DNA of 64,000 nucleotides from a virus (taxonomy: Duplodnaviria; Caudoviricetes). Numbering within the stretch: position 1 is the stretch's first letter; every line of letters starts with the position of its first letter. Both the position numbers and the translations under genes were made by a program. The stretch lies in the IMG/VR virus record IMGVR_UViG_3300037483_000760, positions 1,799-65,798 of that record; one strand, written 5' to 3'. The notes beneath the pieces were generated by a model. The model was not told the DNA's origin. It ran no database searches and saw only the letters and a list, made by a program, of their open reading frames with translations. Positions 48,052 through 54,144 of the stretch are shown piece by piece.

Positions 48052-48306
48052 ATGAAAACCGTCCTTCCATACCCCCCGCCATGGCAAGACGCCGAGACAC
48101 TGTGCGCGCATGTGTGCATCGGCGAGCGCACGCTGGACGCTTGGGTTAGGCAGGGAATCCTTCCGCCGGCCAAGATGCGGGGCGGCAAGCGCATGTGGAA
48201 ATGGTCGGAAGTGGAACGTTACATGGAAGGCAATACCGCTATAGTCCCGGAACAGGACTTAGCCCAAAAGGTGCATCATGCAACCCGCCAAGCCGCGCAT
48301 CGGTAG
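48052..48306 (+). CDS. xis: Excisionase / AlpA-like HTH protein
   Basis: TLCAHVCIGERTLDAWVRQGILPPA...GKRMWKWSEV. Overlaps the integrase start. Confidence 0.8.
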   Translation: MKTVLPYPPPWQDAETLCAHVCIGERTLDAWVRQGILPPAKMRGGKRMWKWSEVERYMEGNTAIVPEQDLAQKVHHATRQAAHR

Positions 48307-49249
48307 GGTCACTCCCGGCACGTTCGCCGCCGTGATCCGGCAATTCATGGCCTCGCCTGCCTACACCACCAAAGCGGAATCGACACGCCAGAGCTGGGGG
48401 CGGGCCTTAAGGCTGGCCGAGGAGGAAGGCGGTCTTGGTGGATGCTCGGTGCAAGTGGTCCGGCCTGCCATCATCCAAAGCTTTCTTGACGCCCTGGCCG
48501 ACATGCCGGGAAAGCAGTCGGTAGCGCGCACGGCCCTAAAGGCGCTGGAGGCTTACGCCGTGGTGCGGGATTTAGTCCCTATGCCGTTCATGACCGGGAC
48601 AACCGTGGTCGGTTCGGACGGCGGTCATGAGCCGTGGCCTGACGATTGTGTGGCCATGGCGGAGCAGCACGCCCGCCCGGACCTCGCCCGCGCCGTGATA
48701 CTGGCCCTCAATTTGGGGCAGCGCGGGTCCGACGTGGTTCGGATGAGGCCGACCGATATCGAGGAAAAGATTGACTCGACGACGGGCGTTCAAATGCGCG
48801 GGATCAACGTCACACAGCAAAAGACGGGGCGGCGCCTTTGGGTTCCGTTCATCTATCCCGAGTTCGAGCCCGTCCTGAATTCATGGGAGCGCCGCCCTGG
48901 CCCGTTCGTCCTGACGCCGGACGGCAGGCCGTTTACCCGCCCCCTGCTTTCGACGCATTGGAACCGGGAGCGGGACAGCAACCCCGAGCTAAAGCCGCTG
49001 GCGGAGGCCGGGCTGGTCCTGCATGGGCTCCGGGCCACGGCGGTTGTGCGGGCCAGAAAGCGCGGCCTGACCGATCTGCAAATCTCGAACGTGTTCGGAA
49101 TGAGCGAGGCAATGGTGGCCCGTTATTCGCGGCTGGCAGACCAGGGCGACATGGCGATGGCGGCTGTGCATTTCCTGTGCAGAACGGGTGGGGAACAGGA
49201 CAAGCGTAACGTTCAAAACGTTACAACCGGCAAAATAGGCATTCCGTAG
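48278..49249 (+). CDS. int: Tyrosine integrase
   Basis: LGQRGSDV (R), QQKTG (K), LHGLRAT (HxxR) and VARYS (Y). Confidence 0.92.
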   Translation: MQPAKPRIGRVTPGTFAAVIRQFMASPAYTTKAESTRQSWGRALRLAEEEGGLGGCSVQVVRPAIIQSFLDALADMPGKQSVARTALKALEAYAVVRDLVPMPFMTGTTVVGSDGGHEPWPDDCVAMAEQHARPDLARAVILALNLGQRGSDVVRMRPTDIEEKIDSTTGVQMRGINVTQQKTGRRLWVPFIYPEFEPVLNSWERRPGPFVLTPDGRPFTRPLLSTHWNRERDSNPELKPLAEAGLVLHGLRATAVVRARKRGLTDLQISNVFGMSEAMVARYSRLADQGDMAMAAVHFLCRTGGEQDKRNVQNVTTGKIGIP

Positions 49250-49411
49250 TCAAATCAGTAGCTTAGCAAAGTCGCTACGTTTTGATTCATTGTGTGACAA
49301 CAAGGGAAATCAATGAGTTAGGCGGACCATTGGGGTGCGAGGAAGGGCAAAAGACCGCGGCATTCGGTAGCAAACTCACCTAGTCGAGCCCGCATATATT
49401 AAGACTCGACT
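49208..49411. other. Candidate attP region
   Basis: AT-rich gap after int with repeats AACGTTCAAA/AACGTTACAA, AAATCA-N5-TTAG (49252 and 49307), and an AGTCGAG...CTCGACT inverted repeat. Confidence 0.4.
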
Positions 49412-49458
49412 CCTGGCGGTTGTGGCGCGAGACTTTGCCCCTCAAAAGGGAGGGATAC

Positions 49459-49755
49459 ATGCTGAGGATTCTACTTTCTGCTGCCCTCATGCTCGCCACG
49501 GTCGGCGGCGCGTGGGCGCAAGTCTCTGTGCGCGGGTACTACCGAAGCAACGGCACATATGTTGCGCCGCATTATCGCTCGGCACCGGATAGTAGCTACA
49601 ACAACAACTGGTCGGTCCAGCCAAACGTGAACCCCTACACGGGGCAGATGGGCACCCGGTCACCGACCTATAACGACCGTCCGCCATCCAGCGGTTACGG
49701 GCTCGGTAGTGGGGGCGGCCTATATGGCGGCTCGGGCAGCGGGCTTTATCGTTAA
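49459..49755 (+). CDS. Small exported protein (moron-like)
   Basis: Signal peptide, then VRGYYRSNGTYVAPHYRSAPD...NVNPYTG; GGGAGG RBS. Confidence 0.75.
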   Translation: MLRILLSAALMLATVGGAWAQVSVRGYYRSNGTYVAPHYRSAPDSSYNNNWSVQPNVNPYTGQMGTRSPTYNDRPPSSGYGLGSGGGLYGGSGSGLYR

Positions 49756-50306
49756 AGCCAACGTTCAAAGTTGATTGCACCTGCAATCAACTTAGCTTGA
49801 GAAGCGTCAATACTGTTGACCGATTCTCGCGCAGATCGGCGTCGCGCACAAGTGACCTACAATAGGTAGGTCAGTGATTGATTTTTGCGCTTCATGTTGT
49901 GCGCGCGTGACACCCAGAATTTCATATGCTACAAAATGTTGCGGCACCGGGGGCGAAGCCGGTGCCGCTGAAAAGATTGTGCGAAGCCTGTTTCTGTTGC
50001 GTCCCGGGGTAGCCTTGGCGAGGCCAGAATCAGTGCCGAGTCGCTTTGACTTTCTAACACTCCAGTCCCGCCAGGTCCAATTTTAGTTTGTCCCCTTGGG
50101 GACATCCGAACGCCTTTTCGGCGTTGGCTGGGGCTTTCAACCTACAACCAACGCCGGAACGAAAACCGGGGCCGCAAGGCCCCGGCTGTCTCGAACCAAG
50201 TGTGGGTCCGCCTCTGCCAAGGCGGCATCGAAAGGTAGGTGGTACATGACAATATAGTCACGTCGCGGGGCTACCAGCGGTGCTTCGCATCGCTGGTAGC
50301 TTCCGT

Positions 50307-50380
50307 GGGCCGGGGCTGGTGCCGCCTGCTTGGCTATCCACCCGTGCGGGCTTGGGTCCGATCCCCAACCGGTCCACCCA
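50307..50380 (+). ncRNA. tRNA-like / tmRNA-TLD-like element with alanine identity elements
   Basis: 7-bp acceptor GGGCCGG/CCGGTCC with G3:U70, A discriminator, T-arm TTGGG-TCCGATC-CCCAA, mini D-hairpin GGC-TGGT-GCC, and 6-bp stem GCCTGC/GCGGGC. Confidence 0.45.
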
Positions 50381-50421
50381 GATTTTCATAGCAGAATCAA
50401 TAGGATTCGTCCAGCGCGATT

Positions 50422-50649
50422 TCACGCCGACTTATCGCGGGCAATTCCGTATGCCTTCTCATCGTCGAAAAAGCGAACGCCAGCACCCTCCAGGGCAGTT
50501 CTCATTGCCGTTAGATTGTTCCGGGTCGGCTCCCGCCGGCCGGCCTCAAAATCCCTCACGGTCGAGACGCCAACATTGGACGCCTTGGCAAGGGCTTCCT
50601 GAGACCATTCCATCCACGCCCGGGCAGCCCGGCATTGTTCCCGTGTCAT
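50422..50649 (-). CDS. XRE-family HTH regulator
   Basis: MTREQCRAARAWMEWSQEALAKASNVGVSTVRDFEAGRREP. Confidence 0.88.
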   Translation of the reverse strand: MTREQCRAARAWMEWSQEALAKASNVGVSTVRDFEAGRREPTRNNLTAMRTALEGAGVRFFDDEKAYGIARDKSA

Positions 50650-50699
50650 ACACTGAAACTAGCGAGGCCAACTTTTTTCGTCAAGGCCAACGTTTTCTA

Positions 50700-50728
50700 T
50701 TGACGTCACTGATTTCAGTGATTATCAA
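50700..50728. promoter_or_regulatory. Divergent promoter with a palindromic operator
   Basis: TTGACG at 50700 followed by TCACTGA-TT-TCAGTGA (50706-50721), between XRE and transposase. Confidence 0.55.
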
Positions 50729-50754
50729 TGAGGTCAACGGAAAACGTTGGTCTC

Positions 50755-51720
50755 ATGTCACAGCACTTCCTCCTCTCCTCAGCCGCCCGGTCGCTCTCGT
50801 TAGCGACCGTGGCGCGCATGTCGGATGAGGAGGCTTGGGAGGCGTTCAAGCTTATCCGCTGGTCCGACACCAAGGGCGAGCCCGTTTGCCCCCGCTGCGG
50901 CTGTCTTGACCACTACACCTACAAGACCCGCAAGGTTTTCCGCTGCAAGGCCTGCTCGCATCAGTTCACGGTCACGTCGGGGACCATTTTCGCCAGCCGC
51001 AAGCTTCCGATCCGCGACTACCTCCTAGCCATCGCGATCTTCGTGAACGGCGCAAAGGGCCATAGCGCGCTCCAGCTGAGCCGCGACCTGAACGTCCAAT
51101 GGAAGACCGCTTACGTGCTTTCCATGAAGCTCCGGGAGGCCGTAGCGGCTGAGACAAAGGATCACGTTGCCTCCGGTGAGGTCGAAATCGACGGCATGTA
51201 CACCGGCGGCCACATTCGCCCGGCCAACTATAAAGAGAACCGCAAGGACCGCCGCCTGGCCGTCCATCAAACCGGCAAGCGCCGCGTTGTGGTCGTCATG
51301 CGCGAGCGCAATGGTCGCACGCTTCCATTCGTCACCAAGTCTGAAGATGAGGCGGTCCCGACCATCAACGCCCGCGTGGCAGTCGGCAGTATCATCCATG
51401 CCGACGAAGCCGCGCATTGGGATGAATTGCACGCGCGCTACCTAACCAAGCGCATCAATCACTCGCAGGCCTATTCGGATGGCGAGGCCTGCACCAATCA
51501 GGCAGAGAGCTTCTTTAGCAGGCTCCGCCGCGCGGAAATCGGTACACACCACCATATCGCCGGGCCGTATCTTACCTACTACGCGAACGAAATGGCGTGG
51601 CGAGAAGACAACCGCCGCGCCAGCAACGGCGTCTTGTACCTAATGGCGGCAGACGCGGCCTTGAAACATCCGGTTTCTAATGAATGGCGCGGCTACTGGC
51701 AGCGGAGTGAAAAGCGATGA
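50755..51720 (+). mobile_element. IS1595-family (ISXO2-like) DDE transposase
   Basis: Zn ribbon CPRC...CKAC, VEIDGMY, IHADE, INHS, TNQAESFFSRLRR, YANEMAWRE. Element ends not identified. Confidence 0.9.
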
Positions 51721-52160
51721 GACAAAGTACCGAGACCTATCAGCACACCATCAACGGCCTTTTGCAAAAACGGGCTGAAATGATGGAAGATGTCGCGGTT
51801 ACGCGCGAACGGCTTGCCGTACTGTCCAACGATATTGAGGCACTAGATCGTGTGCTTGAACGTCTTGGTTATGACGGGGACGTGAACCTTACGCCGCGCG
51901 TGCCGCGGATTACCCTGTTTTATCGCGGTGAGCTTCGGCAGTTCTTGCTCAATCAGCTTCGCGAACATGGCGAAATGACCTCGCGCAAACTGGCAGAAAA
52001 CCTTGTGAAGATCGAAGGCAAGGATGCCCGCGATAGGCGCATGATGGCTGATATAGTGCGCCGGATTGGAAAGGCGCTTCGTCAGATGCAGATGTCGAAA
52101 ATGGTTTCGTCAGTGCGAAGCAAGAACATGGGGGAATACACCTGGAGTATTGCCAAATAG
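51717..52160 (+). CDS. Hypothetical protein (coiled coil plus winged-helix-like), coupled to the transposase
   Basis: 147 aa; ATGA overlap with the transposase stop. Confidence 0.65.
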   Translation: MRQSTETYQHTINGLLQKRAEMMEDVAVTRERLAVLSNDIEALDRVLERLGYDGDVNLTPRVPRITLFYRGELRQFLLNQLREHGEMTSRKLAENLVKIEGKDARDRRMMADIVRRIGKALRQMQMSKMVSSVRSKNMGEYTWSIAK

Positions 52161-52165
52161 CAGTT

Positions 52166-52663
52166 TTACTTTGCTGCAGGAGTCCCCTTTTTGTTGGCCT
52201 CAGCGAGAATTTCGGCCTGCTTCACAAATTCCGAAGATTCTCGTTCGGTACCTAGAACTGTGTTTCTAATCAACCCAAGCCGTACGGCGATCCATACGAG
52301 GATTAATGTGTACGCCGCGGTCTCAATAATGAGCAGCCAAACTACAAAATGGCTCCATTCCTGCGATGCGGCATGGAGCGATATGTCGAGCAACTCCACG
52401 ACTTTAGTGATTCCAAGAAGAACTAGAATTATGAACAATCCGCAGATCTGCAATGAAGCTGTTTTGATTTTCTTCGCACGTATAGAATCGTAGTTCTGAC
52501 GCATACTTTCTGGAATTAGTTCGCCATGCTCGCGAAACGCCTCTTTCATGTTGTCTTGTGCTGCGGCAAACCTATCGCTCAGATGATTGTGGAAATATTG
52601 AGTTATGGCGAGCGAAGCGCTCGCCAATATTATCAGGCCGTTCGTTTGGCCCGAGAGCTCCAT
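52166..52663 (-). CDS. AT-rich membrane protein (2-3 TM)
   Basis: Hydrophobic helices flanking a coiled-coil segment; visibly lower GC than the flanks. Confidence 0.65.
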   Translation of the reverse strand: MELSGQTNGLIILASASLAITQYFHNHLSDRFAAAQDNMKEAFREHGELIPESMRQNYDSIRAKKIKTASLQICGLFIILVLLGITKVVELLDISLHAASQEWSHFVVWLLIIETAAYTLILVWIAVRLGLIRNTVLGTERESSEFVKQAEILAEANKKGTPAAK

Positions 52664-53250
52664 CCTTCCCCCTCTACCCCTAGAGACTTCTTCCACCGAG
52701 CAAAAATGTCGCTCAGGTATGCCGGTAAGATACCGTCCTGGTCGTTAAATGACGCGTATGCTTTTTTTGTTCCGTCATCAACCTCTAGTCGATAGGCGTT
52801 CCCAGACAACAAAAAATGAGTATATTCTTTCTGTTGCTTTCCGGCAACATAAGCTCTGGCGTTTGGATGGTGCATAAGCGTGGAATAAAACTCGTTACCC
52901 TCCAAGTCCTCCTCTGGACAAAGAGTAACTACTTCTACTTTGCACCCGTTATCCAAAGCGTCCTGTAGAGTAGGCACCAATAATTCAAATACTCCTGGAA
53001 AAAGTTTTCCAGAAACTATTTGCACATTGGTTTTTTCTGCTGCGGCATGCTTGAGCAAACCGCGCATCAAGATAGTTGCGTGCTGAACAGAAGTATTTTC
53101 GATGATATCTGCTAGTTTATGGGTTCTGCATCTTTCCACGAGCTTTGCAAAATCATCCGTTTCCACCGGTGGAGTGGAGGGCTGGCGCGCCGGCGTGCGT
53201 TCAGACTGCACCTCGGTTGACTTAGGTAGCTCTGTCAAAACGTCGCTCAT
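52633..53250 (-). CDS. AT-rich protein with PLD-fold-like motifs
   Basis: NTSVQHATILM...VQIVSGKL...HFLLSGNAYRLEVD...AYASFND. Confidence 0.55.
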   Translation of the reverse strand: MSDVLTELPKSTEVQSERTPARQPSTPPVETDDFAKLVERCRTHKLADIIENTSVQHATILMRGLLKHAAAEKTNVQIVSGKLFPGVFELLVPTLQDALDNGCKVEVVTLCPEEDLEGNEFYSTLMHHPNARAYVAGKQQKEYTHFLLSGNAYRLEVDDGTKKAYASFNDQDGILPAYLSDIFARWKKSLGVEGEGWSSRAKRTA

Positions 53251-53648
53251 GTCCGGCTCCCAAATCAGGAATCCAAAACCGACCCGCCACCGCTCATGCG
53301 ATGTAGAGTATCTCCCCCGCAAACGTTTATGTGTTCAATGGACTCGACCAACGCGCTCGCGGCGTGCACAACCGCGCGCATGGTCACGCGCCTACAGTCA
53401 CAACGAGGGCGCAGCAAAGCGAGTCCTCCCTTGCCGTCACCAAGCTCGTTAACCTGGCTCAGCGTACAGCAACGCAAAGCGTATTCGCCGAGTTCAGGCC
53501 AGACAAGCGATTTTGATGAGGTTCCAACAGGCGATCACGTCCATTTCGCCACAACACCTAATATATGCTGCATCGCAGCATAAACAAGAGCTTCTTTACT
53601 CTATAGGTTGAGCTTTAATAAAGCTTTGATCTGCCTCAACAAAATAAA

Positions 53649-53918
53649 ATGAAATTGGAGGTGAGTTTGCTACCGAATGCCGCCAAGATGCGCGCAGCAG
53701 ATGGTGAAAATCGCGATCCAATCTACGCGCCAGATGGTCGCACTTGGTACGACATGCTACTGGCCGAGGCCGAGAGACGCGGCAAGTATCAAGACGCGCT
53801 ATGCCAAATTGCAAGACAAAAACTGAGTGTCGAAATGGATGAAGAAGAGCGAGAGTTGGCGGATTGGGAAGGCGGCTACGAGGCCATCGTCGGCATCGCC
53901 CGCGATGCCATCGCATGA
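53649..53918 (+). CDS. Hypothetical protein
   Basis: 89 aa; GGAGG upstream. Confidence 0.45.
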   Translation: MKLEVSLLPNAAKMRAADGENRDPIYAPDGRTWYDMLLAEAERRGKYQDALCQIARQKLSVEMDEEERELADWEGGYEAIVGIARDAIA

Positions 53919-53952
53919 TGTTGATGAGCAGAGAATATAATAGGAGACTGAC

Positions 53953-54144
53953 ATGCTGATCCATCGCGATTTAATTTCTTGCGTCGATCATGGCGTCTAT
54001 GGCGTTGATCCAGGTGATATCCCCTGTTGTCCAATTTGCGACCAGCCGATGCAAAAAGGCGAGCCTATTAATCTCCAAACCTGTGACGCGGGGCCAGGTA
54101 ACCCGGATTTACTCCGGCTCGTTCACGCAGCATGTGCCGAATAA
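53953..54144 (+). CDS. Small zinc-finger protein
   Basis: CPIC...HAAC; AGGAG RBS. Confidence 0.55.
   Translation: MLIHRDLISCVDHGVYGVDPGDIPCCPICDQPMQKGEPINLQTCDAGPGNPDLLRLVHAACAE

Follow-up and report, generated by a model that had tools for sequence, protein, structure and literature searches.

We describe here a short element in a phage genome that probably encodes a transposon-borne tRNA mimic which is processed by RNase P and likely chargeable with alanine. The DNA that we analysed, referred to as the window, comprises 64 kb of a 65.8-kb IMG/VR virus record that has direct terminal repeats and a GC content of about 60%. The tRNA-like RNA, which is delimited by its sequence, fold, conservation and covariation, and its parts are located as follows.

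50307-50378, plus strand: tRNA-like RNA of 72 nt, from G1 to A73-C74-C75
50307-50313/50369-50375, plus strand: acceptor stem of 7 bp, GGGCCGG/CCGGTCC, with G3.U70 at 50309/50373
50314-50323, plus strand: D-like hairpin, GGC-UGGU-GCC
50324-50351, plus strand: long arm, with the loop CUAUCCA(C) at about 50334-50341
50324-50329/50346-50351, plus strand: base stem of the long arm, 6 bp, GCCTGC/GCGGGC
50352-50368, plus strand: T arm, stem TTGGG/CCCAA and loop TCCGATC
50376 (A) and 50377-50378 (CC), plus strand: A73 and tail; the genomic tail reads CCCA after A73

A preliminary description, made from the window sequence alone, had reported an acceptor stem with a G:U at its third pair, an A followed by CCCA, a T arm, a D-like hairpin and a 6-bp stem. 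All of these are present in the sequence, and the minimum free energy (MFE) fold of the window copy is a cloverleaf that contains every one of them. The 6-bp stem, described as closing 16 nt, stands, but it is the base of an irregular arm of about 9-10 bp. The statement that there is no normal anticodon arm also holds, but the position is occupied by a conserved long arm with an anticodon-loop-like loop that includes a U33-like U. Comparison with shuffled sequences, which had been proposed as a check, gave a divided answer: the fold is weak on its own (MFE z = -1.23, with 24 of 200 shuffles equally stable), whereas a strict scan for the acceptor (G3.U70, A73) with an adjacent 5-bp/7-nt T arm found a single site over both strands of the window, with about 0.05 sites expected per dinucleotide-shuffled window. 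For the single window sequence without homologues, the case for a tRNA mimic is suggestive, not compelling.

Annotation pipelines miss the element, because ARAGORN and Rfam call nothing. ARAGORN reported no tRNA or tmRNA genes in the window and none in the homologous loci. Rfam at gathering scores gave no match at this place in the window, and the Rfam tRNA, tmRNA and C4 models, run over positions 49700-50700 at E ≤ 10, gave no match for the window copy. Under the tRNA model the highest-scoring relative is L042, with 22.9 bits across the whole model, where the gathering score is 29; under the tmRNA model (RF00023) two relatives score 29.7 bits (L089, E = 1e-8) and 13.3 bits (L090), with a gathering score of 47. 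The check by these programs that had been suggested earlier was thus negative, with the window copy uncalled and sister copies sub-threshold only. No sigma-70-like site and no plus-strand terminator consensus was found at the element. Open reading frames (ORFs) cross it, but a protein-coding reading is excluded because frame-shifting indels separate the copies.

In order to find homologues we used several searches. The first ones came from an exact 22-mer of the T arm and 3' strand, which matched four Bradyrhizobiaceae/alphaproteobacterial MAG contigs, each of which carries the whole element. Further copies were obtained by BLAST against 401 genomes of Bradyrhizobiaceae, by a covariance model (R1, under which the window copy scores 88.8 bits) against 151 genomes of the order, and by one degenerate pattern over metagenome contigs, which yielded 38 loci. 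Altogether there are about 60 homologues in Bradyrhizobiaceae, other alphaproteobacterial genomes, and soil and sludge metagenomes. There was no DNA match among 50,697 phage records, and two pattern scans of viral contigs returned nothing. The aligned set comprises 50 copies, of which 44 are distinct, and its conservation is bounded exactly: it begins at G1 and ends at A73-C-C, the flanks diverge immediately, and nucleotide -1 is variable. The full CCA is encoded in about 45% of the copies.

We counted pairing for the cloverleaf given in the preliminary description; the middle of the alignment had been fitted to no structure beforehand. Divergent sister copies, whose 5' strands were misaligned by MAFFT, were left out of the counts. 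Among the 44 distinct copies 93.7% of the paired cells are able to pair, compared to 87.0% in shuffles, and 13 of the 24 pairs show changes on both sides; none of 500 shuffles reaches the observed values, and slid controls drop to 29-56%. The proposed covariation check was therefore positive, in homologues that are bacterial or metagenomic and not phage. Covariation is seen in the D-like hairpin, the long arm and the T stem. In the D-like hairpin all three pairs covary (GGC/GCC, GUC/GAC, AAGC/GCUU, AGU/ACU, UGC/GCA and GAGC/GCUC) and the loop UGGN is kept. In the T stem, the 5' side of which had been left free by the degenerate search pattern, pairs 49-65 and 50-64 show seven and ten double changes, respectively. 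The long arm carries a loop of 7-8 nt with the pattern N-U-N-N-N-C-A(C); a variant (L006/L075) lacks the arm through a deletion between GCTGG repeats. G.U pairs are frequent in the alignment, and on the opposite strand they would be C.A mismatches; the RNA is therefore read from the plus strand. By its pattern of conservation and compensatory change the element is a real structured RNA, and the earlier suggestion of a decayed tRNA-Ala is rejected because it is conserved and covarying.

The element had been taken for a phage feature with counterparts in related phages. Instead, judging by its ends and its neighbouring genes, it is part of an IS1595-family transposon that is inserted in the phage. 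The relevant features are listed below.

48278-49249: phage tyrosine integrase gene (phrog_1)
49357-49381, plus strand: left terminal inverted repeat, GCGGCATTCGGTAGCAAACTCACCT, a perfect inverse match to 53659-53683
49420-49755: left cargo gene, 111 aa, phrog_29674, secreted-looking, with a signal peptide and a Gly/Ser/Tyr-rich tail
50422-50649, minus strand: 75-aa XRE/HTH_3 regulator (Pfam HTH_3 3.2e-9; PADLOC Control_protein 1.2e-10)
50674-50753, no strand assigned: operator-like inverted repeats with the core CCAACGTT, from a repeat search, with a related copy at 49745-49775
50728-51720, plus strand: IS1595-family (ISXO2-like) DDE transposase with an N-terminal zinc ribbon (Pfam, NCBIfam)
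52166-52696, 52633-53322 and 53102-53452: ORFs in the right part, without Pfam, PHROG or PADLOC match
53659-53683, minus strand: right terminal inverted repeat, a perfect 25-nt match to the left end

The transposon spans about 4.33 kb (49357-53683), and the same terminal repeat (23-25 nt) lies 650-2080 nt upstream of G1 in about 25 other loci. Its transposase matches DDE_Tnp_IS1595 (5e-44) and Zn_ribbon_IS1595 (7e-15) in Pfam and transpos_IS1595 in NCBIfam, and transposase homologues are found at the same distance from the tRNA-like RNA in at least 16 loci. The regulator gene, which is convergent to the tRNA-like RNA and head to head with the transposase gene, lies downstream of this RNA in about 30 of 45 loci, and its product resembles the controllers known as C-proteins or 'control proteins'. 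Inverted repeats of 21-30 nt centred on CCAACGTT lie between the regulator and transposase genes and recur just after the 111-aa ORF; we infer that these repeats, which flank the RNA region, are candidate operators of the XRE controller. The cargo gene to the left of the RNA varies among copies of the insertion sequence (IS), with unrelated genes at the same place. The right part of the transposon (window 52000-54000) drops to 49% GC; its ORFs are probably foreign cargo, and the other cargo ORFs gave no matches to PADLOC, Pfam or PHROGs.

No target duplication was seen around the window copy. One genome (G168) contains a 3.9-kb IS copy that ends in the terminal repeats described above and is flanked by an 8-bp duplication of its target, CACTTCCG. 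The second copy in this genome (L082, G168:C1:2666520-2668539) is a 2-kb deletion derivative that is cut inside the tRNA-like gene: its two inverted repeats, cargo gene and leader are still present, but of the tRNA-like gene only the first 38 nt remain, and the T arm is gone along with the genes for the regulator and the transposase. The ends of the window element begin CGGnnTT, which presumably matches the ISfinder entry for ISNha5. By its sequence features, the host element is an ISNha5-like IS1595 'transporter IS'. ISNha5-type 'transporter IS' passengers are said to include transcription regulators (Siguier, Gagnevin & Chandler 2009, via PMC11891212), and these elements share with the transposons described here a DDE_Tnp_IS1595 transposase, a length of about 3.9-4.3 kb, a regulator passenger and an 8-bp target duplication. 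The full-text literature that was searched contained no mention of an RNA gene in ISNha5/IS1595 elements and no description that combined IS1595 with a tRNA-like RNA.

On the phage side, the transposon starts 110 nt downstream of the integrase gene and occupies the place where attP might be expected. The only relative found for this integrase, 71% identical, is in one other viral contig (L002, 4001-4957); similarity between the two sequences extends for about 230 nt on the upstream side of the integrase gene and is absent on its downstream side.

In order to examine the alanine signature beyond the main clade, in which the fixity of the acceptor is partly forced by a degenerate pattern that fixed its 3' strand, we searched for sister copies anchored on the neighbouring transposase, using the covariance model without filters and a scan that required neither the G.U nor A73. 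Sister elements were found 376-519 nt upstream of the transposase start in nine of the 12 closest transposase loci; the unfiltered model and the scan found none in the clade with 55-65% transposase identity. The sister acceptor stems are GGGGCUA/UAGCUCC, GGGGGUG with CACCUCC, UACCUCC or UAUCUCC, and GGGCCAG/CUGGUCC, with GGGCCGA/UCGGUCC in L042 and GGGGACG/CGUCUCC in L089, so that pairs 4-7 change by compensation across at least seven stem types. G1-C72, G2-C71, G3.U70 and A73 are invariant in all copies, sisters included, and C74-C75 is retained in all but one (L086, ACA). These data agree with the preliminary description of a tRNA mimic of alanine identity. A wobble pair that survives the turnover of the stem around it is not explained by helix stability. 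All copies thus carry what identifies a substrate of alanyl-tRNA synthetase (AlaRS), namely G3.U70 and A73 in a 7-bp acceptor helix, and the constancy of G1-C72, G2-C71, G3.U70 and A73 makes alanine charging by AlaRS likely. In place of U55 there is a C or, in sister copies, a G. That G3:U70 is a major AlaRS determinant is established knowledge (PMC5389517).

Upstream of G1 lies a structured leader with the following parts.

50159-50306, plus strand: structured leader, conserved in about 20 copies, with homology from -148 to -1 relative to G1
50166-50185, plus strand: P1 hairpin
about 50203-50229, plus strand: P2 hairpin
50234-50245, plus strand: SD-like sequence, GGTAGGTGGTAC
50246-50257, plus strand: mini-ORF, ATG-ACA-ATA-TAG
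50270-50300, plus strand: P3 hairpin, ending 6 nt before G1

An alignment of 22 leaders (MAFFT) shows compensatory changes in P1, P2 and P3, and some hairpin is found directly 5' of G1 in every copy of the tRNA-like RNA. A conserved mini-ORF, 3-6 codons long, follows the strong SD-like GGTAGGTGGTAC at a distance of 0-1 nt, also in the leaders of L010, L005 and L058. The two sense codons of the mini-ORF covary between copies (ACA-ACA, ATA-ATA, AGA-AGA) and are rare A-ending codons in the GC-rich host; this mini-ORF may be compared to the bar minigenes of lambda or to an attenuator leader peptide. Between the 111-aa cargo ORF and the leader are about 400 nt (49756-50158) that are hairpin-dense and ORF-poor and have no counterpart in other IS copies; they contain a minus-strand terminator-like hairpin (49941-49968) and a 16-nt repeat, CACCCAGAATTTCATA, at 49911.

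The region is present in RNA libraries. RNA-seq contigs of a cultured relative match the G168 copy at 100% and cover the leader and the tRNA-like RNA at a depth of about 28-37. In two runs these contigs terminate 2 nt past ACC, in two other runs leader contigs terminate 3-5 nt 5' of G1, and beyond ACC into the regulator gene there is only a contig with a depth of about 3.9. This evidence consists of assembled contigs from one study, which are strandless and whose ends need not be true RNA ends, and the breaks are therefore hints of RNA ends at both borders. The break at G1 is not due to the second G168 copy, because the two copies are identical up to position 38 of the tRNA-like RNA and diverge only there. 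At locus L010 (741-1428) RNA contigs from runs X3-X6 with a depth of 109-336 and 90-95% identity cover the transposase/regulator region and diverge from the locus at 1428, within the regulator gene. A further paralogous IS copy, expressed at a higher level and differing in the 3' end of its regulator gene, is therefore present in the organism from which the RNA came.

We propose that a plus-strand transcript would run from the cargo gene through the structured leader to the mimic, which would form the 3' end of the left-hand transcript of the transposon. The stack of acceptor and T arm, an elbow between D loop and T loop (UGG facing UCC) and A73-C-C would together make a substrate for tRNA maturation enzymes. 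Bacterial RNase P and CCA recognition need the CC after A73. RNase P would cut at G1, leaving the upstream RNA with an end in the P3 hairpin, tRNA 3'-end enzymes and the CCA-adding enzyme would complete the ACC(A) end, and a stable RNA of about 73 nt would be freed. Ending the transcript at the mimic would also avert antisense read-through into the convergent regulator gene. The preliminary description had raised the possibility of an RNase P or 3'-processing signal for the upstream structured RNA; the constant presence of a hairpin 5' of G1 and the contig breaks near G1 and ACC fit this idea. The freed RNA would most likely be charged with alanine by AlaRS, and any effect of it on the regulator and transposase genes is likewise inferred.

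We can only tentatively go further and suggest that the alanine-charged, non-decoding RNA is a working part of the IS1595 element, one that might couple the regulator/transposase switch to the state of tRNA charging or ribosome rescue, either through charge-sensitive regulation or by entering stalled ribosomes in the manner of a tag-less mini-tmRNA.

It is unlikely, in our opinion, that the RNA is instead a regulator of the kind of C4 and P4 CI, in which the tRNA-like fold would serve only for excision of a stable small RNA by RNase P, and the loops of this RNA would control transposition by base pairing with an mRNA (that of the transposase, of the regulator or of a host gene) or by attaching to the regulator protein. 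Carriage by a mobile element, a position adjoining a small repressor-like HTH gene and operator repeats, the apparent cutting from a longer transcript (as judged by the breaks of the RNA contigs) and the conserved loop motif U-N-N-N-C-A-C(C) of the long arm all fit such a role. The loop sequence CCACC is moreover complementary to GGTGG in the leader, but its pairing with the leader SD is not borne out by leaderless copies that retain CCACC and by L042, which has the leader GGTGG together with a GCAC loop. Searches with the C4 model (RF01695) at E ≤ 10 gave no match in the window or in the homologous copies, no recurrent complementary site of at least 7 nt was found at a fixed place from -1.5 to +2.5 kb in 50 loci, and G3.U70 would be superfluous for a pure excision handle.

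A role on the ribosome, which we regard as improbable, would require that the alanine-charged RNA act as an irregular working tRNA that reads codons of the Glu/Asp/Gln type, or as a tag-less, tmRNA-like rescue RNA with SmpB. The loop of the long arm does follow an anticodon-loop-like pattern, with a U33-like U, a conserved C-A at 37-38 and a variable middle triplet (UUC, AUC, UUG, CUG, GUC, UCC or UAC), and the D-like hairpin stacked on the long arm would have approximately the length of a D stem plus an anticodon stem. However, a pyrimidine occupies position 37, the arm is both irregular and two to three layers too long and is missing in the L006/L075 variant, and alanine at Glu, Asp or Gln codons would be harmful. 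We also considered self-decoding, in which the loop triplet would be matched by codons of the transposase; none of the columns in the codon alignment of the transposase follows the triplet, and an equally good fit was obtained in 83 of 300 permutations. The sole basis for a mini-tmRNA is the sub-threshold tmRNA-model score of one sister copy (L089), whereas a tag reading frame is absent and the hosts have their own two-piece tmRNA. Mukai et al. [quoted passage not shown]

A purely DNA-level site, whether the core of an attP, a target for integration that stems from a tRNA gene or an inverted repeat to which a protein binds, is highly improbable. In its favour, the integrase gene lies 1.06 kb upstream of the element, one copy (L041) stands at a junction with low-GC foreign DNA, and a 16-nt direct repeat, CACCCAGA(A/T)TTTCATA, occurs at 49911 and 50375. 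Against it, this repeat was not found in other loci, the integrase relative in L002 has no such element, the element is transcribed and sits inside a transposon with its own ends, covariation preserves RNA pairing with G.U pairs included, and all 37 uncut copies that the T arm and 3' strand retrieved from metagenomes are complete, with no 3'-only fragments of the sort that att duplication would give.

To our knowledge, tRNA mimics of alanine identity are known mainly from tmRNA, and for tRNA-like RNAs that RNase P excises from transcripts of mobile elements the main examples are C4 of P1/P7 and CI of P4. The RNA described here forms a separate covarying family that is absent from Rfam, has the full AlaRS identity set and keeps a fixed position in an IS1595-family transposon beside the regulator and transposase genes. 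Should this RNA be charged, or have a part in shaping the transcripts of the element, these insertion sequences would carry an overlooked RNA component; if it is an alanine-charged working part of IS1595, it would constitute a new class of transposon-encoded RNA beside the omega RNAs of IS200/IS605 and the bridge RNAs of IS110. Cultured strains of the Nitrobacter/Bradyrhizobium type carry and express the family, which makes these ideas easy to test. A practical warning also follows, as an apparent phage RNA was here brought in by an element that had inserted into the phage genome.

Several known systems resemble the mimic. The mimic shares with tRNA-Ala (RF00005, clan CL00001) the 7-bp acceptor with G1-C72, G2-C71, G3.U70, A73 and CC(A), a T arm (5-bp stem, 7-nt loop) that directly adjoins the acceptor, and the GG in the D-like loop; some sister copies even carry the textbook tRNA-Ala stem GGGGCUA/UAGCUCC. 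Unlike tRNA-Ala, it lacks nucleotides 8-9 and 26 and the variable loop, a hairpin of 3-4 bp that closes a 4-nt loop stands in for the D arm, C or G is found in place of U55, and the irregular 9-10-bp arm replaces the anticodon arm: where a tRNA has a 5-bp anticodon stem and a 7-nt loop with U33 and a purine at 37, the loop of this arm has the U33-like U, yet a conserved C at '37'. The tRNA-like domain (TLD) of tmRNA (RF00023, alpha_tmRNA RF01849) and the TLD-only relatives of tmRNA resemble the mimic in their alanine identity, in having a reduced D arm and in the helix that substitutes for an anticodon stem. Unlike tmRNA, the mimic is a continuous unit of about 72 nt without tag frame or pseudoknots, and an origin as a piece of the host tmRNA gene is rejected, since the hosts keep a separate two-piece tmRNA with a different sequence and another acceptor/T arm.

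Among RNAs of mobile elements, C4 of P1/P7 and CI of P4 (RF01695) are excised by RNase P from a longer transcript in a repressor/immunity region. The mimic is, like these immunity RNAs, a small RNA of a mobile element; unlike them, it shows no Rfam sequence or structure match and no cis target complementarity was found for it, and its alanine identity set has no counterpart in C4/CI. The allo-tRNAs and other irregular tRNAs are likewise odd tRNA-shaped genes of soil bacteria, some of them with G3:U70, and allo-tRNAs have an 8/4 or 9/3 acceptor/T geometry and long variable arms (PMC5389517), in contrast to the mimic with its 7/5 geometry, no variable arm and a fixed place in an IS1595 element. 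The mascRNA of MALAT1 and GUT15 are eukaryotic and unrelated to the mimic in sequence, and the analogy is functional only: a tRNA-like fold that ends a longer transcript attracts RNase P, whose cut forms the upstream RNA's 3' end and frees a small tRNA-like RNA (PMC8457004, PMC6152437).
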